The position numbers and the translations under genes were made by a program. The notes under the pieces were generated by a model. The model had not been told where the DNA came from and did no database searches. It saw only the letters and a list, made by a program, of their open reading frames with translations. From Candidatus Doudnabacteria bacterium (GTDB lineage: Bacteria > Patescibacteriota > Doudnabacteria > UBA920), in contig JARLHZ010000034.1 in assembly GCA_031291995.1 (NCBI GenBank), forward strand, positions 14,915 to 78,914: 64,000 nucleotides of DNA, written 5' to 3'. Of the stretch, positions 2,745 to 49,680 are shown one piece after another; position 1 is the first letter of the stretch; every line of letters begins with the position of its first letter.

Positions 2745-3248
2745 ATGGAAAAAAGACGCAGACAATCAGGCCGGGACGGCGGCGACCGCGAACGCAATGA
2801 GTTCGACCAAAAAACCGTGGAAATTAAGCGCGTCACCCGCGTGGTGGCCGGCGGAAAACGCATGCGTTTTCGCGCGTTGGTTGTAATTGGCGACCACAAG
2901 GGCCGCGTAGGCATGGGCCTGAAAAAAGGCGCGGATGTTTCGGAAAGCGTCAACAAAGCCGTGAACGCCGCCAAAAAGAGCATGATTACATTGCCTTTAA
3001 TTAACGAAACCATTCCGCACGAAGTCAATGTTAAATATAAGTCTTCCAGTTTAATGTTCAAGCCGGCCAAGCCCGGTACCGGCGTTATTGCCGGAGGGGC
3101 GGTTCGCAGCGTTATGGAGCTTTCCGGCGTAAAGAACGTCGTCTGCAAAATGCTTGGCTCGAACAATAAAGTTAACAATGTCAAAGCCGTGTTTGCCGCT
3201 TTTAATAAAATGAAGAGCAAGTCGGCGCTGGCACAAATGCGCAAATAG
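2745..3248 (+). CDS. rpsE: 30S ribosomal protein S5
   Basis: S5 motifs (KRVTRVVAGGKRMRFRALVVIGDHKGRVG). The track start is TTG 2730; ATG 2745 is preferred. Confidence 0.9.
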   Translation: MEKRRRQSGRDGGDRERNEFDQKTVEIKRVTRVVAGGKRMRFRALVVIGDHKGRVGMGLKKGADVSESVNKAVNAAKKSMITLPLINETIPHEVNVKYKSSSLMFKPAKPGTGVIAGGAVRSVMELSGVKNVVCKMLGSNNKVNNVKAVFAAFNKMKSKSALAQMRK

Positions 3249-3337
3249 TTTACGAAGTACGAACAAGTACGAACTTACGAAAGTTTGTACTTAAGGTTCG
3301 TATGTTCGTAAAATTTCGTACTTCGTAAAATACATTT
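3249..3337 (+). repeat. Family B palindromic element (TTTACGAAGTACGAAC…GTTCGTACTTCGTAAA), copy before rplO
   Basis: About 85 bp imperfect palindrome built from TTACGAA/TTCGTAA units. Ends 9 nt before the rplO ATG. Contains TTGTAC-18-TAAAAT promoter-like hexamers. Confidence 0.85.
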
Positions 3338-3772
3338 ATGATCAAACTCCACGAACTCCACAAACACCCCAAATCCACCCACCGCCGCAAGGTTGTCGGC
3401 AGGGGTCTTGGCAGCGGCAAGGGAACCTATTCCACCCGCGGCAACAAGGGTCAAACCAAACGTACCGGACACAGCAAGATGCCTGTTAATTTTGAAGGCG
3501 GCCGCCAGCCGCTGGTTCGCCAATTGCCGAAGTTGCGCGGTTTTCGGGCTCTTGACGGCAAACCAGCCGTAGTCTCTTTGAACGAATTGGCTGTTTTTGC
3601 CGATGGTGCCACCGTGGATCTTAAATCTTTGATTGCCAAAGGTTTGGTGGATGATATGACAAAAACCGCAAAAATATTAGGCGGCGAAATTAAAAAGAAA
3701 TTAAACATAAAATTGCCAATTTCGGCATCCGCCAAAGAAGCGGTGGAAAAAGCCGGGGGCAAAGTCTTTTAG
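3338..3772 (+). CDS. rplO: 50S ribosomal protein L15
   Basis: 144 aa. GRGLGSGKGTYSTRGNKGQ is the L15 glycine-rich signature. It directly follows S5 with no L30 gene between them. Confidence 0.9.
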   Translation: MIKLHELHKHPKSTHRRKVVGRGLGSGKGTYSTRGNKGQTKRTGHSKMPVNFEGGRQPLVRQLPKLRGFRALDGKPAVVSLNELAVFADGATVDLKSLIAKGLVDDMTKTAKILGGEIKKKLNIKLPISASAKEAVEKAGGKVF

Positions 3773-3859
3773 TTTACGAAGTACGAACAGGTACGAACTT
3801 ACGAAGGTTTGTACTTAAGGTTCGTAAGTTCGTAAAATTTCGTACTTCGTAAAAAATAT
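3773..3859 (+). repeat. Family B palindromic element, copy before secY
   Basis: Near-identical to the 3249-3337 copy. Confidence 0.85.
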
Positions 3860-6400: not shown

Positions 6401-6826
6401 ATGCAAGAACAAACGAATCGAAACTTAACACCAGAAGAAAAACAGCAATTAGACGCGCTGCTCGCAAAAGCCGCTGATAATCGGATCAAGCCCGTTGAAT
6501 CGGATCTGTCTAATGCCGAAATTATAAGCCAAAAGGAGAGCGAAATCTCTCCGGATTTTGGGAGAGATACTCAAATTCCGCTTAAAAATCCGCCTGAAGT
6601 TAAACATTTTAATGCTGATGTTACAGGGGCTGCTAAACCGGTTTCCGCTCAGGCACAAGCGGCCAGTGAATCTTCTCAAAATAGGACAAATGGTGAATAC
6701 TATCTGGATACTTTGGCAAATGGTGAATTAATTGATTCCTCCAATAAGGCTACTGACGCTTTAAATGAATTGCTGCAACGCTTGCAAAATCCGGAGTCAG
6801 ACAAGACCACCCCTGATAAAAAGTAA
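6401..6826 (+). CDS. hypothetical acidic low-complexity protein
   Basis: 141 aa ORF preceded by a TTGACA-17-TAAAAT promoter at about 6331-6365. No recognisable domain. Confidence 0.45.
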   Translation: MQEQTNRNLTPEEKQQLDALLAKAADNRIKPVESDLSNAEIISQKESEISPDFGRDTQIPLKNPPEVKHFNADVTGAAKPVSAQAQAASESSQNRTNGEYYLDTLANGELIDSSNKATDALNELLQRLQNPESDKTTPDKK

Positions 6827-10400: not shown

Positions 10401-10586
10401 TAAGGCTTATTCGCTATCCACTCTTTAGCCACAACCCGGATTTGCGGCTTTATTATTTTTTTGGTATAATGCCTTTGTACCTAAATGGCTTATTGAAACA
10501 AAAACCGCAAAATTACCGTAGTATTTAGTATAGAGTTTAGGCCATAGTTTTTTGCGTCTAAAAAACAAAACTAATTTTTTAAGCTT

Positions 10587-16952: not shown

Positions 16953-18215
16953 ATGGAAAATAATCAAGAAATCCAAACTACCCGGACCGCGGGGGAAGTT
17001 AACCAAAGGCCAATGGCGGTTTTAAGCCAAAAAATTATTATTTTAGTCGTTGTTTTGAGCGTTATTTTTGGAGCCATGGGCGGCGCTGGGGGCGCTTACT
17101 TTTTTTTGAAAGCGCCGGCTGGCCAAAAACTTTTATCGGTTAACCAGTCGTCGGGGCAAAAAATCAGCCTGACAGAGGATTCGGCTGTAATTGATGTGGT
17201 CAAACAGGCCAGTCCGGCCGTTGTTTCCATTATTATTTCCCAGGATTTAAATAAAATTCCGGGTTATGGGATGAACCCTTATAGTCAAAACCCGTTTTTT
17301 AATTTTTTTGGCGGCGGCCAAAGCCAGCAACAACAATCAACGGCGCCAAACGTGCAGGAAGTCGGGGCGGGAAGCGGATTTTTTGTTTCCGCGGACGGCT
17401 TGATACTGACAAACAAACATGTAGTGTCCGACCTGACTGCCAGCTACACGGTTATTACTTCCGACGGCAAAAAGTATGATGCCAAAGTAGTGGCCCAGGA
17501 TCCGGTGAATGATTTGGCTATTGTTAAAATTGGCATCCAGAACGCTCCTTATTTGAAGCTTGCCGATTCTTCCAGGCTTCAGGTAGGCCAGCACGTTATT
17601 GCCATCGGCAATTCGCTGGGGCAATACCAAAATACCGTGACCAGCGGCATTGTGTCCGGCATCGGCCGAAGTATTACCGCGGGTTCGGATACCGGCAGCG
17701 AAGACTTGTCCGGAGTGATTCAGACTGATGCCGCGATAAATCCAGGTAACAGCGGGGGGCCATTGCTGGATATTACCGGCCAGGTAATCGGTATGAATAC
17801 GGCCATCGACCAGCAGGGTCAGCTGGTGGGTTTTGCCATTCCTTCCAATGAAGTCCAAAAGGCACTGGAAAGTTTTCAGAAAAATGGAAAAATTACGCGG
17901 CCTTTTTTGGGCGTGCGCTATATTACCATTACTTCGGACATCGCCAAGCAGAATAATTTGCCCCAAGACTTTGGCGCTTTAATAGTGCGCGGGCAAAATG
18001 TCACCGACTTCGCCGTCCAGCCCGGCAGTCCGGCCGACAAAGCGGGATTGGTTGAGAACGATATTATTTTGGAAGTTAACGGGACAAAGGTGGATGAAAA
18101 TAATTCTTTATCGACGCTGCTGCAAAATTTTAATGTCGGCGATACCGTGGATTTGCAGGTTTACCACAAAGGCAAAACAGAAGATGTAAAAGTAACGCTG
18201 GGAGAATCGAAGTAA
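16953..18215 (+). CDS. htrA: trypsin-like serine protease HtrA/DegP with C-terminal PDZ domain
   Basis: 420 aa. N-terminal TM. Catalytic GNSGGPLL motif, His/Asp context, PDZ-like tail. Confidence 0.88.
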   Translation: MENNQEIQTTRTAGEVNQRPMAVLSQKIIILVVVLSVIFGAMGGAGGAYFFLKAPAGQKLLSVNQSSGQKISLTEDSAVIDVVKQASPAVVSIIISQDLNKIPGYGMNPYSQNPFFNFFGGGQSQQQQSTAPNVQEVGAGSGFFVSADGLILTNKHVVSDLTASYTVITSDGKKYDAKVVAQDPVNDLAIVKIGIQNAPYLKLADSSRLQVGQHVIAIGNSLGQYQNTVTSGIVSGIGRSITAGSDTGSEDLSGVIQTDAAINPGNSGGPLLDITGQVIGMNTAIDQQGQLVGFAIPSNEVQKALESFQKNGKITRPFLGVRYITITSDIAKQNNLPQDFGALIVRGQNVTDFAVQPGSPADKAGLVENDIILEVNGTKVDENNSLSTLLQNFNVGDTVDLQVYHKGKTEDVKVTLGESK

Positions 18216-18220
18216 ACAGG

Positions 18221-18700
18221 TACAGTATCTCCTCCTTGCTGAGGAGGAGTACCCGCCGCAGGCGGGGGAAGTGGTGAATAAATGGATTATCAGATAATAA
18301 AAAATAGACCAGACACAGTAAATTTTAGAAAGCAGTTGAGAAATAATTCATCACCGGCAGAAATTATATTATGGCTTGAGCTCAAAGGGCGAAAGTTAAA
18401 TGGTAGAAAATTTCGGAGGCAGTATGGGGTAGAACAGTTTACGGTTGATTTTTACTGTCCTGAATGTAAATTGGCTGTGGAACTAGATGGCGAGACCCAT
18501 AACAATCCTCAAAGCTTTAATTATGACGCCAAAAGAACAGAGGTTATATTGGGGCACGGAATAAAGACTATAAGATTTACTAATAAGGAAATCAGAGAAA
18601 ATTTAGCGGGAGTTTTGGAAGAAATTAAAAAATACTTGGATTGACACCACCCCGTCGCCCTGCGGGCGACACCCCTCCTCAGCAAGGAGGGGATGCTCCG
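18221..18700. mobile_element. about 480 bp element: DUF559 endonuclease-like gene flanked by about 45 bp terminal inverted hairpin repeats
   Basis: Left end 18221-18268 and reverse-complemented right end 18650-18700 align (CTCCTCCTTGCTGAGGAGG…CCGCCGCAGGCGG versus CCCTCCTTGCTGAGGAGG…CGCCCGCAGGGCG). Inserted between htrA and ruvX. Confidence 0.55.
18282..18644 (+). CDS. DUF559 (Vsr/endonuclease-like fold) domain protein
   Basis: 120 aa. DUF559-like pattern (…AEIILWLELKGRKLNGRKFRRQ…VDFYCPECKLAVELDGETH…). Confidence 0.7.
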   Translation: MDYQIIKNRPDTVNFRKQLRNNSSPAEIILWLELKGRKLNGRKFRRQYGVEQFTVDFYCPECKLAVELDGETHNNPQSFNYDAKRTEVILGHGIKTIRFTNKEIRENLAGVLEEIKKYLD

Positions 18701-18717
18701 CATTAGCTCTAACGAAT

Positions 18718-19158
18718 ATGAAAATTCTTGGAATAGACTATGGTACAGTAAGGATTGGATTGGCGATATCAGATGAATCGTTGACTTTGGCCCGGGAGCT
18801 GGATATATTATCGCCCAAGGAGTTTTGGGATCAGCTGAGTCAGCTAATCAGCAGTCAGCAAATTAGCAAAATAGTTTTAGGCTGGCCCCTAAATATGAAC
18901 GGGGAGCGGACAAAGAAGACGGAAGAAGTGGAAAGATTCAAGGTTAAAATTGAAAGTAAAACGGGCTTGCCGGTGGAAGTAATAGACGAGCGGTTAACAT
19001 CGCAGATGGCGGAACACATCAGCGACGATATCCGCCTTCGCCAAGGCTTCGGCGGTTCGCGTTCTAAAAATAAATTCGGGAGCGCGAAAAATGACCTGGA
19101 CAGTTTAGCCGCGCAAATTTTATTGCAAAATTATTTGGATAAAATGAAAAAAGATTAA
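18718..19158 (+). CDS. ruvX: Holliday junction resolvase-like protein YqgF/RuvX
   Basis: 146 aa. MKILGIDYGTVRIGLAISD is the YqgF N-terminus. Confidence 0.85.
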   Translation: MKILGIDYGTVRIGLAISDESLTLARELDILSPKEFWDQLSQLISSQQISKIVLGWPLNMNGERTKKTEEVERFKVKIESKTGLPVEVIDERLTSQMAEHISDDIRLRQGFGGSRSKNKFGSAKNDLDSLAAQILLQNYLDKMKKD

Positions 19159-19494: not shown

Positions 19495-20511
19495 TTGTCC
19501 GAATTTCGCCAAAATCCAATTACAAAAAACTGGGTCCTTATTGCTCCCGCCAGGGGGAAGCGGCCGGATCAGTATAAAACTTACAGTGTTATGTTGGGCG
19601 TGCCGGAAACCGATCCGGCGTGCGTTTTTTGCGCGGGCAACGAACATTTAAACCGGGAAGTTTTACGTTTGGATTCAAGCGGCGAGCGGACCACGGGGAA
19701 GGATTGGGAAATACGGATTATTCCAAATAAATTCGCGGCACTGGAACAGACGGCGGTTTACCGCCACAAAGAATTTTATATTTCCCACAGCGGGGACGGC
19801 GAACATGAGGTCATAATTACGCGAAACCACAATGAGCCGGTCGCTTTGCAGTCCATTGCGGTAGTGGAACTGTCTATTCGCACATTCATCGAGCGGATAA
19901 AAACCTTTGCCAAAAACCCGGAGCTGGCTTATGTGCAGATTTTCCATAACCATGGACGCGACGCCGGAGCCAGCATTATCCATCCGCATTATCAATTACT
20001 GGCCACTCCTATTGTTCCGCCCCATGTCCACAGTGAAATTTTAGGGTGTTACCATTATTACCAGACCCACAAAAGTTGCGTATATTGTGATATTATAAAG
20101 GAAGAGCTGGAAGTAAAACACCGCGTGGTTCACGACAGCGAGCATTTTGTGGTAATTTCCGCTTACGCCAGCCGCAGCCCGTTTGAAACCTGGATTTTGC
20201 CAAAAAAGCACGGCGCGCGGTTTGAGGATATGGGTGAAGAGGAAATTAAACACCTGTCCTTCGTTTTAAAAGTGACGCTCGGCCAGCTGTATACTAAACT
20301 TTCCGACCCGCCGCTGAATTTTTATATCCACACCATGCCTCTTCGCCAGCAGGGCGGCATGCACAGCACCTACGAAGAAAAAGATTTCCACTGGCACCTG
20401 ACCATCTTCCCCCGCATCACCATTTGGGCCGGCTTCGAATTCGCCACGGGGATTCCGGTAAACCCGATAGCGCCGGAGGTGAGTACGAAGTTTCTTAAGG
20501 GAGAGGGTTGA
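19495..20511 (+). CDS. galT: galactose-1-phosphate uridylyltransferase-like (HIT superfamily, GalT family)
   Basis: 338 aa. HIT-like HPHYQL motif and GalT-like two-half architecture with Cys/His metal ligands. Confidence 0.7.
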   Translation: MSEFRQNPITKNWVLIAPARGKRPDQYKTYSVMLGVPETDPACVFCAGNEHLNREVLRLDSSGERTTGKDWEIRIIPNKFAALEQTAVYRHKEFYISHSGDGEHEVIITRNHNEPVALQSIAVVELSIRTFIERIKTFAKNPELAYVQIFHNHGRDAGASIIHPHYQLLATPIVPPHVHSEILGCYHYYQTHKSCVYCDIIKEELEVKHRVVHDSEHFVVISAYASRSPFETWILPKKHGARFEDMGEEEIKHLSFVLKVTLGQLYTKLSDPPLNFYIHTMPLRQQGGMHSTYEEKDFHWHLTIFPRITIWAGFEFATGIPVNPIAPEVSTKFLKGEG

Positions 20512-20552
20512 TAAAAGAGGGTGAAGGGTTGATAACACAATGCAAAGATATT

Positions 20553-20912
20553 ATGCCAGCGAACTCTTATAAAAATCTGACAGCGTGGATTAAGGCTATT
20601 GAATTGGTACAGGAAATTTATGTCATTACTGATAAATTTCCAAAAATGGAATTGTATATTTTGGTCAACCAAATGTTAAGGGCGGCAATCTCAGTACCTT
20701 CAAATATAGCCGAGGGTTATAGAAGAAATCACAGATTAGAGTATATACAATTTTTATCAATAGCAATTGCATCCGCGGCTGAATTGGAAACACAGCTAAT
20801 AATTGCTAAAAATAGATACCCGCTCGTAGATTATCAAAAAGCGGAAATTTTATTGGACGAAATTCAAAGATTGTTGTACGTCACAATTAGATCTTTGAAA
20901 GGAGGTAAATAA
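20553..20912 (+). CDS. four-helix-bundle protein (TIGR02436-like, 'rRNA intervening-sequence protein' family)
   Basis: Conserved IAEGYRRNHRLEYIQFLSIAIASAAELETQL. The ORF track starts at 20508; internal Met 20553 gives the typical 120 aa size. Confidence 0.65.
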   Translation: MPANSYKNLTAWIKAIELVQEIYVITDKFPKMELYILVNQMLRAAISVPSNIAEGYRRNHRLEYIQFLSIAIASAAELETQLIIAKNRYPLVDYQKAEILLDEIQRLLYVTIRSLKGGK

Positions 20913-22142: not shown

Positions 22143-22227
22143 AGATGGAATTTACGAAGTACGAACAGGTACGAACTTACGAAGTTTGTCCGTTCGTAAG
22201 TTCGTAAACATCCATACTTCGTAAACT
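22143..22227 (+). repeat. Family B palindromic element, copy between rpiB and rpe
   Basis: ATTTACGAAGTACGAACAGGTACGAACTTACGAAG…CGTTCGTAAGTTCGTAAAC…ACTTCGTAAAC. Confidence 0.8.
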
Positions 22228-30766: not shown

Positions 30767-32020
30767 ATGAAAATCACAAAAATTCAGGCTCTGGAGGTTT
30801 TGGACAGCAGGGGAAACCCGACGGTGCAAACCACGGTTTGGGCCGGAGATTTGAGCGCTAAGGCTTCTGTCCCGAGTGGCGCGTCAACAGGCGTGCATGA
30901 GGCTTTGGAATTGCGCGATAATGACAAATATCGCTTCGGGGGCAAAGGCGTTCTCAAAGCCTGCCTTAATGTTGAGAAAAAGATTTTTAAAGCCTTAAAA
31001 GGCTTGTCCGTAGCGGATCAGCAAAAAATTGACCGCACCATGTTGGAGCTGGACGGTACGGCCAATAAGGCAAAACTGGGCGCTAACGCGATTTTATCAG
31101 TTTCTCTTGCCACGGCCAGACTGGCCGCCAAAGCCAAAAAAATTGAACTTTATGAGTACCTGGCAGCTACGTACGGCTATAAGGTAAAGAGTTTGCCCAC
31201 GCCGTTTTTTAATGTTATAAACGGGGGTGTCCATGCCGACAGCGGTTTGGATATCCAGGAATTTTTTTTGATACCGCTTAAAGGCAATTTTGCAAATAAA
31301 CTTAGGATGGCGGCGGAAGTATTCCATTCGCTTAAATCGCAATTGGCCATTCAGGGGCTTGCCACTTCGGTTGGAGACGAGGGCGGCTTTGCGCCAAAAC
31401 TTTCTTCTAACGAGGACGCGCTTAAACAATTGGAGACTGCTATAAAATCGGCTAAATATAAATTGGGCTCGGATTTTGCCTTGGGATTAGACGCGGCGTC
31501 CAGTGAATTTTTTGATGAGAAAAAAGGAGTTTATGAATTGAAAGCGTCAAATATAACGGCGACCCCGGCCAATGTCTATCAGATTTATAAAAAATGGCTG
31601 GCCAAATATCCGCTGCTTGCCCTGGAAGATGGCTGCGCTCAGGATGACTTTTCGGGTTGGAAAGCTTTAACTCAAAATTTGGGTGATAAAACTTTACTTA
31701 TTGGCGACGATATTTTTGTCACAAATCCTATCCGCATCCAAATGGGTATAGAGCAAAAAATTGCCAACGCGGTGTTAATAAAAGTTAACCAGATTGGCAC
31801 GTTAACAGAAACAATCGACGCTATTAAGCTTTCGCAAAAGCATAAATATAAAATAGTATTTTCTCATCGCAGCGGCGAAACTTGCGATAGTTTTATTGCC
31901 GACTTAGCCGTAGCGACAAATGCCGATTATATTAAGAGCGGAGCGCCGAGCCGGGGCGAAAGGCTGGCCAAATATAATCGATTGATGGAAATAGAGGAAC
32001 AATTGACAAAATTTAAATAA
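30767..32020 (+). CDS. eno: enolase (phosphopyruvate hydratase)
   Basis: The ORF opens at 30686, but the enolase N-terminus MKITKIQALEVLDSRGNPTV begins at ATG 30767. An extended -10 TGGTATAAT lies at 30731-30739 upstream. Confidence 0.93.
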   Translation: MKITKIQALEVLDSRGNPTVQTTVWAGDLSAKASVPSGASTGVHEALELRDNDKYRFGGKGVLKACLNVEKKIFKALKGLSVADQQKIDRTMLELDGTANKAKLGANAILSVSLATARLAAKAKKIELYEYLAATYGYKVKSLPTPFFNVINGGVHADSGLDIQEFFLIPLKGNFANKLRMAAEVFHSLKSQLAIQGLATSVGDEGGFAPKLSSNEDALKQLETAIKSAKYKLGSDFALGLDAASSEFFDEKKGVYELKASNITATPANVYQIYKKWLAKYPLLALEDGCAQDDFSGWKALTQNLGDKTLLIGDDIFVTNPIRIQMGIEQKIANAVLIKVNQIGTLTETIDAIKLSQKHKYKIVFSHRSGETCDSFIADLAVATNADYIKSGAPSRGERLAKYNRLMEIEEQLTKFK

Positions 32021-32098
32021 TTGACAAAATTGACATAATTTTGAGCCCGTACATTTTGCTCAATTATGTCAATTATGTCAATTATGCTCAATATTTTA
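32021..32098 (+). repeat. Family A-related intergenic repeat, copy 4 (between eno and gpmI), plus a 9-mer tandem repeat
   Basis: TAA-TTGACAAAATTGACATAATTTTGAGC…, then (AATTATGTC)x3 running into the gpmI start region. Confidence 0.7.
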
Positions 32099-33718
32099 AT
32101 GAAGCATAAAATTTACAAGAAAGTAGCGCTGGTAATTTTAGACGGTTTTGGCGTGGCGCCGGCCGGGCGGGGCAATGCCATTTCGCGGGCCAAGACTCCG
32201 ACTTTGGATTATTTGGTGGACAATTATCCCAGCCTGACGCTGCAAGCCTCGGGTCCGCTGGTTGGCCTGCCGTGGGGGGAAATGGGAAACAGTGAAGTTG
32301 GCCATTTAAACATTGGAGCCGGACGGATTGTCGGACAGGATTTGCCGCGCATTAGCAACTCCATCCAAAATGGCGGCTTTTTTTCGAACGCGGTATTGGT
32401 TGAGGCGGTCGAGCATGCCAAAAAATTTAATTCATCCCTTCACCTGGTGGGCATGGTCAGCCCGGGCGGGGTCCACAGCCTGGACGAACATTTGTACGCT
32501 TTGCTGTCTTTGGCGGCGGAACTGGGTCAGAAAAAAGTTTATATCCATATGTTTACCGACGGTCGCGATACCGATCCAAAAATCGCTCCGGAGTCGATAA
32601 AAAAATTGGACATAAAGATGGCCGAGGTCGGAGTGGGAAAAATTGCCACGGTGTCCGGACGTTTTTACGCCATGGATCGCGGCGGACATTGGGCGCAAAC
32701 CATGATGGCTTATGGCGCCATGGTGGACGGCTTGGGGGAAACCTCGCGTACGCCGGAAGAATGCGTGGCCAAAAATTACCAGGCGCAAATTTTTGACGAA
32801 ATGATTAAGCCGACCGTAATTGTGGACGACGATAATAAAGCTGTGGGTAAGATTTCCGACAACGATGCGCTTATATTTTTTAATTTTCGTTCCGATCGCG
32901 CTTTGCAGCTGACCGAAGCGTTTGTAAGTCCGCAGGGCATGCCTCCCGAATTCGAGCACCGTTTGCTTCAAAATTTATATTTCGCGACCATTACCGAATA
33001 CGCCCCGGGCTTGCCGGTGCATGTGGCATTCGGGCCGATGAGCCTGAAAAATAATCTGGCGGAGGTCGTGTCGAGCAGCCGGCTGACCCAGTTCCATATA
33101 GCCGAAAGCGAAAAATACGCCCACGTGACCGCGTTTTTTAACTGTGGACGCACCGAAAAGTTTCCGGGAGAGGAACGGATTATAGTTACCAGTCCGACAA
33201 ATAACGCGCGCAATTATTCCGACCATCCCGAAATGTCCGCGGAAAAGCTGGCCGATGAACTGACTCTGAAGATTTCCAGCACGGACATTAATTTTTTCCT
33301 TGCTAATTTTGCCAACACCGACATGGTCGGCCATACGGGAAACCTGCTGGCCGGCATCCAGGCGGTCGAATTTGTGGATAAATGCCTGAAGAAAATTCTA
33401 GATGCCTGCATGATGGCTGACGCGGCACTGCTGGTGACTGCCGACCACGGGAACATAGAGCAAATGATAAACCCGAGAACAGGCGACATAGACAAGGACC
33501 ATACGACCAATCCCGTACCGTTGTTGCTGGCGGCCAATGAATTTAAATTCAGCCATCCGTACAGCCGCGGCCTGATGTCGCTGGCTGAGCGTGTGCCGGC
33601 CGGAGCGGTTTCCGACGTGGCGCCCACGGTTTTGGCGCTGTTCGGCTTAAAAAAGCCCCAGGAAATGACCGGGATTGATTTAACCGATGAAATTGACGAG
33701 GTTCCGGCCGCCCACTAA
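32099..33718 (+). CDS. gpmI: 2,3-bisphosphoglycerate-independent phosphoglycerate mutase
   Basis: iPGM motifs (VALVILDGFG, NSEVGHLNIGAGR, TADHGN). The ORF opens at 32066 inside a 9-mer tandem repeat; the start is taken at MKHKIYKK 32099. Confidence 0.9.
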   Translation: MKHKIYKKVALVILDGFGVAPAGRGNAISRAKTPTLDYLVDNYPSLTLQASGPLVGLPWGEMGNSEVGHLNIGAGRIVGQDLPRISNSIQNGGFFSNAVLVEAVEHAKKFNSSLHLVGMVSPGGVHSLDEHLYALLSLAAELGQKKVYIHMFTDGRDTDPKIAPESIKKLDIKMAEVGVGKIATVSGRFYAMDRGGHWAQTMMAYGAMVDGLGETSRTPEECVAKNYQAQIFDEMIKPTVIVDDDNKAVGKISDNDALIFFNFRSDRALQLTEAFVSPQGMPPEFEHRLLQNLYFATITEYAPGLPVHVAFGPMSLKNNLAEVVSSSRLTQFHIAESEKYAHVTAFFNCGRTEKFPGEERIIVTSPTNNARNYSDHPEMSAEKLADELTLKISSTDINFFLANFANTDMVGHTGNLLAGIQAVEFVDKCLKKILDACMMADAALLVTADHGNIEQMINPRTGDIDKDHTTNPVPLLLAANEFKFSHPYSRGLMSLAERVPAGAVSDVAPTVLALFGLKKPQEMTGIDLTDEIDEVPAAH

Positions 33719-35695: not shown

Positions 35696-36103
35696 ATGAA
35701 TTTAATTATAAACACAGACGGGGGAGCCAGGGGTAATCCGGGTCCGGCCGGGATTGGCGTGGTCATTCGCAACGCCGAAAATCAAATTATCGCGGAACAT
35801 AAACAGTATATTGGCGAAGCGACCAATAATGTGGCCGAGTATAAGGCTCTGATATTGGCGTTGTCGGAAGCCTTAGCCCATAGCCCTACTCCCTTAGCCC
35901 TGGAAATCCGCATGGACAGCGAACTGATTGTCCGCCAGATGCAGGGCCGCTATAAAATTAAGGAACCCACGCTAAAACTGCTGGCCGCGGAAGTGTTAAA
36001 ACTGATTAAAAATTTTAAGCACGTGGCCTTTAGTCACGTGCCTAGAGAACAAAACAAAGAGGCCGACAAACTGGTCAACGAAGCCATAGACGCGGCAATA
36101 TAA
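35696..36103 (+). CDS. rnhA: ribonuclease HI
   Basis: 135 aa. INTDGGARGNPGPAGIGVVI RNase H N-terminus and a DSELIVRQM-type motif. Confidence 0.85.
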   Translation: MNLIINTDGGARGNPGPAGIGVVIRNAENQIIAEHKQYIGEATNNVAEYKALILALSEALAHSPTPLALEIRMDSELIVRQMQGRYKIKEPTLKLLAAEVLKLIKNFKHVAFSHVPREQNKEADKLVNEAIDAAI

Positions 36104-47832: not shown

Positions 47833-49581
47833 ATGTCCGGACGCAACGTAAAAAACGCCTTTGAATTCAGAAGCAGTTTATTGGCTGTTTTTTTATGTCT
47901 GCTTTTTGTGGTGTTAGCGGCCAAGCTGTTTTATTTGCAGGTGCTGCAAGGCGCCGAACTAAAAAAGGCCGCCGAAGCCCAGCACAGCATTTACCAAAAA
48001 CTTCTGCCGAGCCGGGGCGAAATAGACATGGTGGATAAAGCCTCGTCCGCGCTGGTGCCGCTTGCTACCAATGTAAAAAGCTACCTGGTTTACGCCGTGC
48101 CGTCCGAGGTTTTAAATCCCGGACTCGCGGCGGCCAGTCTGGCCGGCGTATTGCAGTTGGATTCCAAAGACATTTTGGGCAAAATTACGCAGACGGATAA
48201 AAAATACGTTATTATTAAAAAACAGTTAACCGACGCCGAGCAGTCGCAAATCAAGCAGCTCGCGCTGGCCGGAATTTTTTTTGATTCGGAAGATACCCGC
48301 GTTTATCCCCAAAACAGCCTGCTCAGCCAGACCGTGGGGTTTTTGGGATATTCGGGGAAAAATCCCAACAAGACCGGGCTTTACGGTCTAGAAAGGTATT
48401 TTAATCAGGATTTATCGGGATCCTCCGGGCAGGTAACGGCGCAAAAAGACAGCGGGGGAGCAATGATTTACGGCGCCGGTATTGACCGCGAGCCGGCTCT
48501 AGACGGCGCGAATTTAATTTTGACCATCGACCAGACAATTCAGTTTCAGGCCGAAAGCATGCTCAAGGATATGGTGGATAAAAACGGCGCAGACAGCGGC
48601 AGTATAATTGTAGCTAACCCGAAAACCGGCGCCATATTGGCGCTGGCCGGTTATCCGAATTTCGATCCGAACCAGTACAATACTGTTGCCAATCCCGCGG
48701 ATTTTAATAACCAGACGGTCACGGGAAATTACGAACCGGGCTCGGTGTTTAAGGCCATCACCATGGCCGCGGCATTGGATGAAAATAAAGTTACTGCGAC
48801 TTCCACTTATGTTGACACCGGCGATGTCGCGGTTGGCGGGTTCCACATTCATAACTCCGACAACAAGGCGCACGGCCTGACGACCATGACACAGGTTTTG
48901 GATTGGTCTTACAATACCGGCGCGGTATACGCGGAAAACCAGCTAGGCAACCCGGACTTTTTAAAATACGTAAACGCATTCGGCTTTGGCCAGGCCACGG
49001 GTATTGAATTGCCGGAAACCAAAGGCAGTCTGGACGGATTAAAAGGCAATAACCAGACAAATTATGACACTGCCAGTTTCGGCCAGGGAATTTTGGTAAC
49101 GCCTATGCAGATGCTTCAGGCATATACGGCTTTTGCCAACGGCGGGAAAATGATGAAGCCTTATATTATCCAGAGTGAAATTTTTCCGGACGGTAAAATT
49201 GTGGATACCAAGCCCACGGTGGTCAAGCAGGTCATTAGTCCGCAAACCGCCAGCACGCTGGATGCCATGCTGGTGGATGTGGTAGAAAACGGCTACGGCG
49301 CCAAAGCGGCCGTGCCGGGCTATTTTGTGGCCGGCAAGACGGGTACGGCGCAGGTGGCCGGACCGGACGGAAAATATTTGGTTAACGATAACATCGGCTC
49401 GTTTATTGGTTTTGCGCCGGTCGATAATCCCCAGTTTGTCATGCTTATCCGCGTAGACCACCCGCGCGATGCCGAATTTTCCGAAACTACCGCGGTGCCG
49501 GTGTGGGGCAAGCTGGCGCAGTTTATTTTAAACTATATGGGCATTCCGCCCTCGCGACCGATTCCGGCAAACAAACAATAA
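47833..49581 (+). CDS. ftsI: peptidoglycan D,D-transpeptidase FtsI / class B PBP
   Basis: 582 aa. N-terminal TM. SVFK (SxxK) and KTGTA motifs. dcw context. Confidence 0.88.
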   Translation: MSGRNVKNAFEFRSSLLAVFLCLLFVVLAAKLFYLQVLQGAELKKAAEAQHSIYQKLLPSRGEIDMVDKASSALVPLATNVKSYLVYAVPSEVLNPGLAAASLAGVLQLDSKDILGKITQTDKKYVIIKKQLTDAEQSQIKQLALAGIFFDSEDTRVYPQNSLLSQTVGFLGYSGKNPNKTGLYGLERYFNQDLSGSSGQVTAQKDSGGAMIYGAGIDREPALDGANLILTIDQTIQFQAESMLKDMVDKNGADSGSIIVANPKTGAILALAGYPNFDPNQYNTVANPADFNNQTVTGNYEPGSVFKAITMAAALDENKVTATSTYVDTGDVAVGGFHIHNSDNKAHGLTTMTQVLDWSYNTGAVYAENQLGNPDFLKYVNAFGFGQATGIELPETKGSLDGLKGNNQTNYDTASFGQGILVTPMQMLQAYTAFANGGKMMKPYIIQSEIFPDGKIVDTKPTVVKQVISPQTASTLDAMLVDVVENGYGAKAAVPGYFVAGKTGTAQVAGPDGKYLVNDNIGSFIGFAPVDNPQFVMLIRVDHPRDAEFSETTAVPVWGKLAQFILNYMGIPPSRPIPANKQ

Positions 49582-49585
49582 TTCC

Positions 49586-49680
49586 TTTACTAACTACGAA
49601 TCCGTACTAATATACGAATTGAGAACTAAAATTAGTATATTCGTAAAGATTCGTAGTTAGTAAAGGTAGTAAAGGTAGAT
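49586..49680. repeat. Family B-like long palindrome between convergent genes (bidirectional terminator candidate)
   Basis: CCTTTACTAACTACGAATC…GATTCGTAGTTAGTAAAGG, an 18 bp perfect outer stem around ACGAAT/ATTCGT inner repeats. Confidence 0.75.

Follow-up and report, generated by a model that had tools for sequence, protein, structure and literature searches.

A DUF559 nuclease gene between inverted two-hairpin modules at the htrA-ruvX junction of Doudnabacteria: a candidate resident selfish cassette

Free-standing homing endonuclease genes of T-even phages are present at a conserved intergenic junction in some genomes and absent in others, and alternative nuclease genes may occupy the same junction. 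The homing endonuclease I-Bth0305I carries an extra DNA-binding domain. DUF559 is among the commonest bacterial nuclease domains of unknown function. DUF559/EDxHD proteins have been grouped with a group I intron homing endonuclease (PMC3424549; PMC9403480), a DUF559 protein works as a Vsr-like factor in Caulobacter (PMC12907096), and DUF559 genes are over-represented at predicted programmed inversions with an odds ratio of 14 (PMC9881135). RAYT genes, a further point of reference, are single-copy, vertically inherited and flanked by REPs (PMC3337134).

The window analysed here is a 64,000-nucleotide (64-kb) stretch of Candidatus Doudnabacteria DNA, and all positions refer to it. The left host gene is htrA, encoding a trypsin-like protease with a PDZ domain (16953–18215, + strand; Pfam Trypsin_2, E=3e-35, and PDZ_2), which ends in a TAA stop codon at 18213–18215 on the + strand. 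The right host gene is ruvX, encoding a YqgF-family nuclease (18718–19158, + strand; Pfam RuvX, E=1.9e-34). Between them lies a gene for a 120-aa DUF559/Vsr-like PD-(D/E)XK nuclease (18282–18644, + strand; PF04480), bounded by a left arm at 18221–18277 and a right arm at 18644–18703. Both arms were delimited by repeat search, folding and covariance model R1 and are assigned to neither strand; the right arm has the canonical module orientation and the left arm is its inverted copy. The first-pass annotation had described a DUF559 gene on a hairpin-bearing unit with terminal inverted repeats (TIRs) at 18216–18702, between htrA and ruvX, and its boundaries and quoted sequences proved correct. No spare sequence separates the nuclease gene from its arms. 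Orthologs of htrA border the site in all related loci, and ruvX adjoins htrA directly in relatives with an empty site. All three genes lie on one strand, with no promoter-like or terminator-like site between the DUF559 gene and htrA or ruvX, and the DUF559 gene is presumably co-transcribed with both. The GC content of the DUF559 ORF is 0.34–0.43, lower than that of the flanks. A 23S_rRNA_IVP-family gene is found 1.9 kb from the cassette.

Repeat search recovered the arms as an inverted pair (18224–18276 and 18645–18697) of 53 nt, 75% complementary and spaced by 368 nt, in agreement with the earlier view that the flanks are homologous inverted repeats. Among all inverted pairs within 1.5 kb in the window, it is the longest. 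The window contains two exact copies of the 17-mer CCTCCTTGCTGAGGAGG, one per arm and on opposite strands, against a shuffle expectation of 0.06 matches even allowing up to 3 mismatches. Comparison with orthologs extended the repeat a few bases outward, to approximately 18221 on the left, at the outer motif TACAGTAT, and to approximately 18703 on the right, at the outer motif ATGCTCCGCAT. Other copies of the arms had been proposed as a check, and none was present in the 64 kb. With filters off, the covariance model matched only the two arms, and the next match scored 12 bits. The left arm scored 56.6 bits on the minus strand and the right arm 63.7 bits on the plus strand, both being part of the seed alignment of model R1. 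The window contains one DUF559 gene by tblastn and no second copy of it, and no arm copies were found outside the cassette in other Doudnabacteria-like loci.

Folding resolved each arm into two hairpins, as had been suggested (H1/H2 on the left, H2'/H1' on the right). In the left arm, H1 (18229–18249; stem CTCCTCCTT/GAGGAGGAG) is followed by H2 (18252–18266; CCCGCC/GGCGGG) and by the G-rich inner end GGAAGTGGTG (18267–18276). In the right arm, the inner end CACCACCCCG (18645–18654) begins right after the TGA stop and is followed by H2' (18655–18669; TCGCCC/GGGCGA) and H1' (18672–18692; CCCCTCCT/AGGAGGGG). The arm loops, TTGCTGA and TCAGCAA, are reverse complements, the order of the hairpins is mirrored, and the unpaired inner ends GGAAGTGGTG and CACCACCCCG are mutually complementary; the arms are therefore a true inversion and not two copies of one palindrome. 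In canonical orientation the module runs from ACCACCCCG through a variable GC hairpin to CACCCCTCC-loop-GGAGGGG. The inner end of the left arm is GGAGGTGGTG in orthologs, 4–6 nt upstream of the ATG, and looks like the ribosome-binding site of the DUF559 gene. In type A orthologs the right arm begins 0–3 nt past the stop. Neither arm has a U-tract or terminator-like site, and the sequence past the hairpins is not T-rich, giving no sign of an intrinsic terminator. Rfam searches of the window at E≤10 gave no match over the arms apart from noise, and searches at the gathering threshold of 11 loci carrying arms or other DUF559 TIRs gave no match over them.

Purifying selection is stronger on the arms than on the protein. 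Left arms are 77–94% and right arms 81–95% identical among orthologs, against 31–56% at 4-fold degenerate sites, which are near saturation. Between type A and type C the protein is 51% identical, and the arms still reach 78–95%. Type A orthologs are 73–90% identical at codon positions 1 and 2, compared with 49–59% at position 3.

Hairpin 2 varies through compensatory changes. At least 26 different H2 stems were counted among 50 unique modules, and 245 of 254 pairs were Watson-Crick, the other 9/254 being G.U. MAFFT arm alignments put the variable hairpin in the wrong place; for this reason only the three outer H2 pairs entered the covariance model, with a separate analysis for the inner ones. 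Aligned to that model, 62 modules had 97.3% of cells paired, and none of 500 shuffles came up to the observed covariation. The left and right H2 stems of one element differ, yet each forms a perfect local hairpin, and left-arm H2 is not complementary to right-arm H2 in any ortholog. Selection thus acts on the local hairpins and preserves them, rather than pairing between the left and right arms. Strand asymmetry was dropped as evidence for RNA versus DNA: folding is invariably better in the G-rich orientation, which is explained by composition and by a single fixed U.G position.

The 120-aa protein matched PF04480 (DUF559) at E=1.6e-28, with 99 bits against a cutoff of 20.6, and the NCBIfam DUF559 model at E=8e-17, below the equivalog cutoff of that model. 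By sequence it matched PDB entry 3hrl (E=3e-14). An AlphaFold2 model (pLDDT 86.9) matched, by Foldseek, 3hrl (E=2e-7; target-normalised TM-score 0.88), 3r3p (I-Bth0305I; E=3e-4) and Vsr (1cw0 and 1vsr; probability 0.97), and TnsA was a distant fold match (probability 0.77). The modelled protein has a Vsr-like alpha/beta nuclease fold, as had been proposed, and its closest functionally characterised structural neighbour by Foldseek is the homing-endonuclease catalytic domain of I-Bth0305I. Residues D56, E67, D69 and H73 are invariant in 35–38 homologs, and all are kept in the window protein. This nuclease is the sole ORF of the cassette, which encodes no recognised transposase (DDE, serine, tyrosine or HUH) and no strand-transfer or recombinase function. 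We know of no transposase that consists of a 120-aa nuclease domain by itself. PADLOC returned just weak partial matches, to DpdF and a methyl-directed REase, giving no tie to a defence system. An ORF with C5-methyltransferase motifs was not seen in the window, which is a weak test.

The htrA|ruvX junction was compared across related genomes, a check that had been proposed along with a search for empty sites. The type A cassette is carried by the window, L003, L005, L009 and L010; at least four other sampled lineages thus have the same gene and arms at the same site. One further lineage has a 51%-identical DUF559 gene in a rearranged neighbourhood. A contig search with the window DUF559 protein gave two loci, L010 and L011. 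Among lineages the DUF559 protein is 63–78% identical in amino acids, HtrA 65–81% and RuvX 75–82%; since the divergence of DUF559 matches that of HtrA and RuvX, the cassette has been inherited vertically. The junction is empty in at least 15 equally related contigs (L013, L014, L017–L020, L023–L026, L029 and L031–L034). These empty junctions are highly diverse, from 0 to approximately 85 nt in length, with no conserved sequence or target.

Other nuclease genes occupy the same junction, each with its own inverted arms. L012 has a DUF559 gene that is only 34% identical and has different arms, although its HtrA is 75.5% identical to that of the window; L030 has a third DUF559 type; L022 has a GxxExxY nuclease cassette with arms of CGCGGAA repeats. 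L009 and L012 have their outer right flank in common. TGCA-like motifs at both outer ends of the cassette are equally explained as part of the repeat, the empty sites are too divergent to align, and no target-site duplication is definable from the comparison of empty junctions. The orientation of the DUF559 gene relative to htrA and ruvX is constant in all sampled lineages and for every type, and no recombinase gene is adjacent to the cassette. Insertion of the cassette into the htrA|ruvX spacer took place in a single Doudnabacteria sub-clade and was followed by vertical inheritance.

These results divide the first-pass claim of a selfish element. Discrete insertion is borne out by the empty junctions, by the other cassettes at the same junction and by the arm family elsewhere. 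Recent or active mobility is contradicted by the presence of the cassette at the same site in at least four other lineages, with divergence that tracks HtrA and RuvX. The contrary idea raised there, a vertical core gene without TIRs, holds for its conserved position within the sub-clade; the gene there comes with TIRs.

The arm family also surrounds distant DUF559 genes elsewhere. L097, an unrelated contig, has a DUF559 gene of only 42% identity with this module on its flanks. L103 carries a head-to-head pair of left and right modules without an ORF; the start codon and five codons remain between them, and the pair looks like the product of an internal deletion. Phage-like contigs carry solo modules where genes end, on or across the stop codon of an ORF read from the same strand, and L106 has 5 modules at 5 successive cistron boundaries, all on the gene strand. 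The solo sample was picked by the H1 sequence pattern, and the "viral" contigs are possibly misclassified; in GC-rich contigs the proximity of solo copies to ORFs gives a noisy signal, and the clear case of L106 was mainly relied upon. Dispersed module copies were seen only in other contigs, with no DUF559 gene in the stretches examined there. The right arm alone trails DUF559 genes that have no left arm inside type I R-M operons, between hsdR and hsdM. Insertion of the gene into the centre of a pre-existing palindrome was rejected, because the solo copies consist of lone arms or of pairs joined tail to tail; the sole head-to-head pair is that of L103. A blastn search of plasmids with the module gave nothing useful.

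DUF559 loci chosen by protein similarity alone were scored for flanking inverted repeats, with a cross-locus null (95th percentile 25, 99th percentile 34). The score was 35 or more in 12/26 full-length DUF559 loci from viral contigs and in 0/17 partial matches. Flanking inverted repeats were significant in 4/7 plasmid or chromosomal examples chosen in the same way. Two Deinococcus plasmid elements share one arm family, approximately 95% identical, at different loci (paaD|paaZ and hpaB|oxidoreductase), and a Pseudanabaena plasmid element has a near-perfect TIR of roughly 90 nt. Carriers of a TIR-flanked DUF559 gene include Deinococcus psychrotolerans, D. proteolyticus, Pseudanabaena ABRG5-3 and the Bacteroidota loci L193 and L201. 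No flanking inverted repeat was found at an E. coli DUF559 gene (L198), at an Oscillospiraceae homolog (L011) or at the 23S_rRNA_IVP gene of the window. The TIR-flanked DUF559 architecture is common but not universal. Members of the cassette family occur in further phyla and at different loci, and in some cases their arms are almost identical.

We put at about one half the probability that the unit was acquired long ago and is now a resident copy of a compact selfish cassette, composed of a DUF559 nuclease between inverted two-hairpin modules. The class of TIR-bounded nuclease cassettes is apparently undescribed, and no description of it was found. The arms would be cis-acting ends, and what recognises them in folded form, as hairpins or cruciforms, would probably be the encoded nuclease, much as single-copy RAYT genes are served by the REP hairpins around them and IS elements by their TIRs; nuclease activity on the arms is something that we infer entirely. 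Movement would be rare on an evolutionary timescale, and could proceed by excision and insertion or by nuclease-stimulated gene conversion between genomes. With no second copy of arms or gene in the window or other Doudnabacteria-like loci, mobility in this lineage is historical at best. In a secondary role, the arms may package expression inside the host operon, the left arm supplying a ribosome-binding site behind two hairpins and the right arm capping the cistron at its stop codon.

Expression could also be the whole purpose of the arms. It is possible, and we say so tentatively, that an ordinary, host-beneficial gene for a Vsr-like repair or restriction-associated nuclease is punctuated at the RNA level, by transcript hairpins that insulate, stabilise or limit translation in the htrA-ruvX operon; the module would then be a general gene-end element and the inversion incidental. 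Given the co-oriented solo modules and the R-M genes with a right arm only, the arms fit no better as DNA ends than as RNA-level gene-end elements, and perhaps less well. The stop-codon positions of solo modules, the five cistron boundaries of L106, the Shine-Dalgarno sequence GGAGGTGGTG at the left-arm inner end, the right arm placed 0–3 nt past the stop in type A, long retention with purifying selection on protein and arms, and the Vsr-like role of the Caulobacter protein all point the same way. Such punctuation does not account for 5' and 3' elements that are reverse complements of each other, and matched arms are found in many unrelated DUF559 lineages, some at approximately 95%. It also accords poorly with the loss or replacement of the gene by other nuclease cassettes among equally related genomes (missing from at least 15), with the rarity of G.U in H2 stems, with arms that have no U-tract or terminator-like site and, weakly, with the lack of a C5-methyltransferase motif ORF in the window. 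We regard it as unlikely that the gene is a free-standing homing endonuclease gene, whose product would cleave incoming or sister DNA at an empty htrA|ruvX junction, the gene then being copied in by recombination via the conserved flanking genes, with no mobility role for the arms. Presence, absence and exchange of nuclease genes at one conserved intergenic junction are what such genes show in T-even phages, and both the best characterised Foldseek match and the published grouping of DUF559/EDxHD (PMC3424549; PMC9403480) favour it. Homing leaves unexplained why arms are more conserved than the protein, why TIRs match across lineages, why ORF-less pairs exist and why one arm family sits at unrelated loci (paa and hpa operons); the diverse empty junctions, of 0 to approximately 85 nt, offer no conserved target, and the DUF559 protein has no extra DNA-binding domain, unlike I-Bth0305I.

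Two further readings turn on the inverted repeats themselves. The arms might pair in the transcript into a long stem cut by RNase III, excising the DUF559 mRNA as in ORF-carrying 23S rRNA intervening sequences. Complementarity of 75% over 53 nt, inner ends (GGTGGTG/CACCACC) and H1 sequences that are complementary in all orthologs, and the 23S_rRNA_IVP-family gene 1.9 kb away are in keeping with this, yet we consider it highly improbable: left-right complementarity breaks across H2 in every ortholog while the local stems are perfect, solo arms without a partner exist, and the element is not inside an rRNA. That recombination between the inverted repeats switches the gene on and off is scarcely credible. 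The repeats enclose the whole gene, and DUF559 is enriched among predicted programmed-inversion targets, but the gene has one orientation relative to htrA/ruvX in all sampled lineages, no recombinase gene is adjacent, and the enrichment possibly just reflects TIRs flanking DUF559 genes (PMC9881135).

Under the selfish-cassette reading, DUF559 would gain a testable context from the recurrent architecture, in which matched hairpin repeats enclose a nuclease gene, conserved junctions either have or lack the unit, and the arms are more constrained than the protein; the arms would be candidate substrates. The architecture would also explain the enrichment of DUF559 near predicted programmed inversions (PMC9881135). 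The locus adds a conserved structured module at gene ends in several phyla, without an Rfam family match, and suggests that a set of nuclease cassettes (DUF559, GxxExxY) is tolerated in essential-operon spacers by small CPR genomes. If it is true that the nuclease acts on the hairpins, REP-like or TIR-element biology would gain a new class of enzyme. A broader proposal, which we hold to be doubtful, is that the REPIN/RAYT relationship has a second counterpart, built on PD-(D/E)XK, in DUF559 nucleases and their double-hairpin modules. A single-copy, vertically persistent nuclease gene would there recognise and propagate (or police) structured intergenic repeats, and the non-autonomous partner, spread across phyla, would be ACCACCCCG-hairpin-CACCCCTCC..GGAGGGG at cistron ends in phage-like and Bacteroidota-like contigs.

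Among described systems, Vsr-like EDxHD homing endonucleases (I-Bth0305I) share the catalytic fold and the placement of a small nuclease gene in a variable slot between conserved genes; homing genes are not TIR-bounded, and the DUF559 cassette has no intron or intein context and no conserved empty-site target. Vsr/VsrA very-short-patch repair endonucleases belong to the same superfamily, with the same fold and conserved invariant acidic and histidine positions (PMC12907096), but no cytosine methyltransferase linked to the DUF559 gene was seen in the window, and its patchy distribution and TIR packaging are foreign to vsr genes. The 23S rRNA intervening sequences (S23p, four-helix-bundle) are likewise units of approximately 0.4–0.5 kb with a small ORF between terminal inverted repeats and are regarded as selfish (PMC4990558). 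The DUF559 unit differs in lying in a protein-coding operon rather than an rRNA helix, in its ORF family, and in having arms that are local hairpins rather than one long RNase III stem. With IS elements and MITEs it shares matched terminal inverted repeats that bound a small unit present or absent at precise points, an ORF-less derivative (L103) and, in some members of its family, arms approximately 95% identical at different loci. Unlike them, it has no recognisable transposase or demonstrable target-site duplication, is single-copy in 64 kb, and has arms that are hairpin pairs conserved far beyond an inactive relic. REP/REPIN-RAYT systems differ in using a HUH/Y1 (IS200-like) transposase where the DUF559 protein is a PD-(D/E)XK Vsr-like nuclease; there are no dispersed arm copies in the 64 kb of the DUF559 host, and a module sequence found again in different phyla contrasts with REPs, which usually keep to a single species. 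The two are alike in having a short single-copy gene between inverted hairpin-forming repeats, with a repeat type for each gene lineage, in compensatory stem variation beside conserved foot motifs, and in long-term vertical inheritance with solo or doublet repeats at gene ends elsewhere (PMC3337134).

The first-pass annotation had described a DUF559 nuclease gene with hairpin-forming inverted flanks between htrA and ruvX, and the sequence matched this description. The DUF559 ORF was at 18282-18644 (PF04480, E=1.6e-28; neighbours HtrA and RuvX). Its arms were recovered by inverted-repeat search at 18224-18276 and 18645-18697 (53 nt, 75% complementary, spacing 368 nt); no other inverted pair within 1.5 kb was as long in any part of the window. 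Folding gave hairpins H1 (18229-18249) and H2 (18252-18266) in the left arm, and H2' (18655-18669) and H1' (18672-18692) in the right arm. The H1 core, CCTCCTTGCTGAGGAGG, occurred exactly twice in the window, on opposite strands, where shuffles gave an expectation of 0.06 matches with up to 3 mismatches permitted. Loops, hairpin order and unpaired inner ends (GGAAGTGGTG / CACCACCCCG) were mirrored between the arms, which are therefore a genuine inversion. The cassette carried no spare sequence: the left arm ended 5 nt upstream of the ATG and the right arm began at the base after the TGA. Neither promoter-like nor terminator-like sites were found in or beside the arms in the window, and the gene therefore probably shares a transcript with htrA and ruvX. 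A covariance model of the two-hairpin module, run with filters off, matched only these two arms in the window; both were in its seed alignment, and the informative part is the absence of further matches.

The cassette protein is annotated at NCBI from a Candidatus Doudnabacteria MAG, and the identical element was present on two metagenome contigs. A search of 5.8 billion proteins returned only four close homologs (76%, 73%, 70% and 65% identical), beyond which identity was at most 58% and named matches came from Bacteroidota, Cyanobacteria and Ignavibacteria. Three of the four were looked up, together with a GTDB Doudnabacteria contig; all occupied the htrA|ruvX junction and had the same two-hairpin arms. 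Among cassette-carrying lineages, identity was 63-78% for DUF559, 65-81% for HtrA and 75-82% for RuvX. Because DUF559 identity matches that of HtrA and RuvX, and codon positions 1 and 2 of DUF559 were far more conserved than position 3, the cassette has diverged in step with the host genes, under purifying selection.

The arms are under the tightest constraint of any part of the cassette. Arm identity among orthologs was 77-95%, against 31-56% (near saturation) for the four-fold degenerate positions in DUF559 and htrA, and between type A and type C cassettes the arms were 78-95% identical and the proteins approximately 51%. H1 and the inner motif were conserved in sequence, while H2 varied by compensatory substitutions. 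Within one element, H2 differed between left and right arm with each local stem perfect, which shows that selection keeps the local hairpins and not a long duplex between the arms. A stem cut by RNase III, as in an IVS, is accordingly a very improbable account of the arms. A left/right asymmetry was common to the window, type A loci L003, L005 and L010, the relative L015 and the ORF-less arm pair L103: the left arm was CTCCTCC/GGAGGAG plus GGAGGTGG and the right arm CCCCTCC/GGAGGGG plus CCACCCCG.

The htrA|ruvX junction was surveyed by RuvX homolog look-ups and by scanning metagenomes with an alignment of RuvX; this yielded the junction from more Doudnabacteria-like contigs. In at least 15 contigs the junction was empty, htrA adjoining ruvX with a spacer of 0 to approximately 85 nt and no arm traces. 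Other contigs carried different cassettes: L012 (type B) had a DUF559 just 34% identical to that of the window, with different arms of the C-run/G-run kind, in a genome whose HtrA was 75.5% identical to the window's and nearer than those of two type A carriers; in L030 the DUF559 was of a third type and its arms were single hairpins; and L022 had a GxxExxY (PDDEXK_3) gene between CGCGGAA-repeat arms. In L015, a DUF559 51% identical to the window's had arms of the same family in a rearranged neighbourhood. HtrA of the type A locus L009, compared over 271 C-terminal residues only, was nearer to L012 and to the empty L013 than to the window, so that loss or replacement of the cassette must have taken place inside the clade. 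The outer right flank, GGGGAGACTGCA..CGCAT, was common to L012 and L009 and hints at replacement in situ.

Several further features of the window and of related loci were recorded. The GxxExxY ORF of L022 (2078-2520) appears to continue in frame through the right arm into the RuvX CDS (..SASFRVLGIDYG..). Between the right arm and ruvX of L015 (~2370-2460) was a second left-arm-like unit, CTCCCCC..GGGGGAG TA CTGCCC GTA GGGCGG GGAGGGGG, so that a right arm and a left arm form a doublet, as in the tail-to-tail pairs of L107, L112, L117 and L128. Long AT-rich intergenic hairpins of short repeated motifs (TACGAA-type, TTGACA-type) were present in the window at 3246-3332, 3770-3853, 22151-22225 and 49579-49671, with further examples at 893-973, 2156-2190 and 32007-32100; one pair encloses rplO (3338-3772). 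In relatives, the empty htrA|ruvX junctions are filled by spacers of this motif-repeat kind, and GxxExxY cassettes have arms of similar repeats (CGCGGAA in L022, ACAGAT in L012). The galT|tpiA slot was a second variable site, holding a four-helix-bundle/23S_rRNA_IVP gene without flanking inverted repeat in the window (20508-20912), a GxxExxY gene between inverted arms of 50 nt in L012, a 139-aa ORF of unknown type in L013, and a Bro-N gene together with an ORF of 108 aa in L014. The window also contained a stand-alone RNase H/RVT_3 gene (135 aa, 35696-36103).

For DUF559 genes at large, IMG/VR loci were chosen by protein motifs only and scored for the best inverted repeat between upstream and downstream flanks. 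Scores of at least 35 (maximum 133) were obtained for 12/26 full-length loci and 0/17 partial matches; in the cross-locus null, the 95th and 99th percentiles were 25 and 34. Flanking arms were also present in 4/7 plasmid or chromosomal loci: Deinococcus psychrotolerans (between paaD and paaZ; arms ~70 nt, ~95% identical), D. proteolyticus (adjoining hpaB; arms ~62 nt, same arm family, protein 61% identical to that of D. psychrotolerans), Pseudanabaena (~90 nt, near-perfect) and Azospirillum (~31 nt, score 52). All arms were hairpins of C-runs and G-runs. The E. coli and Oscillospiraceae loci were counter-examples, with no flanking repeats. In Synechocystis sp. B12 plasmid CP101712.1 (834-3327 of the retrieved locus), a DUF559 with C-run/G-run hairpins on both sides has a short DUF1156 fragment on one side and, downstream, a 'hypothetical' ORF; it looks to interrupt a DUF1156 methylase-like gene, whose PCC 7002 pAQ6 counterpart is one gene of 3.2 kb.

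A right-arm pattern search of IMG/VR, some contigs of which may not be viral, returned 54 stretches. On the unrelated, GC-richer contig L097, a DUF559 42% identical to the window's had the same module on both sides, and in L103 left and right arms lay 55 nt apart without the ORF, retaining ATG plus five codons. Most other matches, a sample chosen by sequence pattern, were solo copies that kept the consensus in full: (G)AACCACCCCG, variable hairpin, CACCCCTCCTT-loop-AAGGAGGGGAGCTT; tail-to-tail pairs and tandem copies also occurred. At least 26 different H2 stems were found among 50 unique modules, with 245/254 pairs Watson-Crick. In a covariance-model alignment of 62 modules, 97.3% of cells were paired and the observed covariation was reached by 0/500 shuffles. 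No Rfam family matched the module. In Doudnabacteria-like loci, model matches (with rough E-values) were confined to type A and type C cassettes. A Mu-like viral contig with four module copies, L112, also contained a type II hammerhead ribozyme at 6589-6655 (Rfam RF02276, 50.6 bits).

The AlphaFold2 model of the cassette protein (pLDDT 86.9) gave as top structural matches 3hrl (a DUF559 structure), 3r3p (the I-Bth0305I homing-endonuclease catalytic domain) and then Vsr, with TnsA a distant match; D56, E67, D69 and H73 were invariant in the family. One paper places DUF559, Vsr and a homing endonuclease in one group (PMC3424549), a Vsr-like role is reported for one member (PMC12907096), and DUF559 genes are enriched near predicted inversions (PMC9881135). 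The literature search found no published description of TIR-flanked DUF559 cassettes.

There is firm support for three points: the window unit is a discrete nuclease cassette of ancient insertion, DUF559 genes enclosed by matched hairpin repeats make up a broad class of which it is a member, and the arms are functional. The proposal of a selfish element is partly supported. The arms could instead have a purely transcript-level role as punctuation, a less likely reading that still carries some weight. Most solo modules adjoined or overlapped the stop codon of an ORF on the same strand, although ORF calls in GC-rich contigs were crude. In the phage-like L106 (3609-9116; terminase, portal and head-morphogenesis genes), one cistron boundary after another was marked by a module, five in all; each had the orientation of the genes, and several overlapped stop codons. 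The closest relatives of the window protein in Bacteroidota-like genomes (54-56% identical), between hsdR and hsdM, had the right arm only, partly translated (..TTP..). The probable co-transcription of the window gene points the same way. In two large Bacteroidota-like genomes (L193 6759-13007; L201 1-6333), DUF559 is inside a type I restriction-modification operon, overlapping the hsdR stop with hsdM and hsdS downstream. A second conserved structured unit resembling a left-arm-oriented module, GCTCCCCTG-loop-AGGGGAGCTGTCCG..GGACTGAGGGGT, follows DUF559 in four Bacteroidota-like loci (L192 ~10410-10460; L193 ~10425-10470; L201 ~3480-3535; L202 ~1485-1525 and 3455-3500).

Action of the arms at the DNA level, as element ends, is favoured because many unrelated lineages have left and right arms that match, near-identical arms occur at different loci, presence or absence is precise, and an ORF-less derivative exists, all of which fits such ends. 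Homing alone fits these observations less well and is improbable, and an invertible segment (inverton) fits so poorly that it can hardly be entertained. The DNA-level reading is weakened by the lack of a known transposase and of a target-site duplication, by the single copy in the window, and by solo copies that lie at the ends of genes in the orientation of those genes. The nearest parallel to a DNA-level role as element ends is the REP/RAYT system (PMC3337134).
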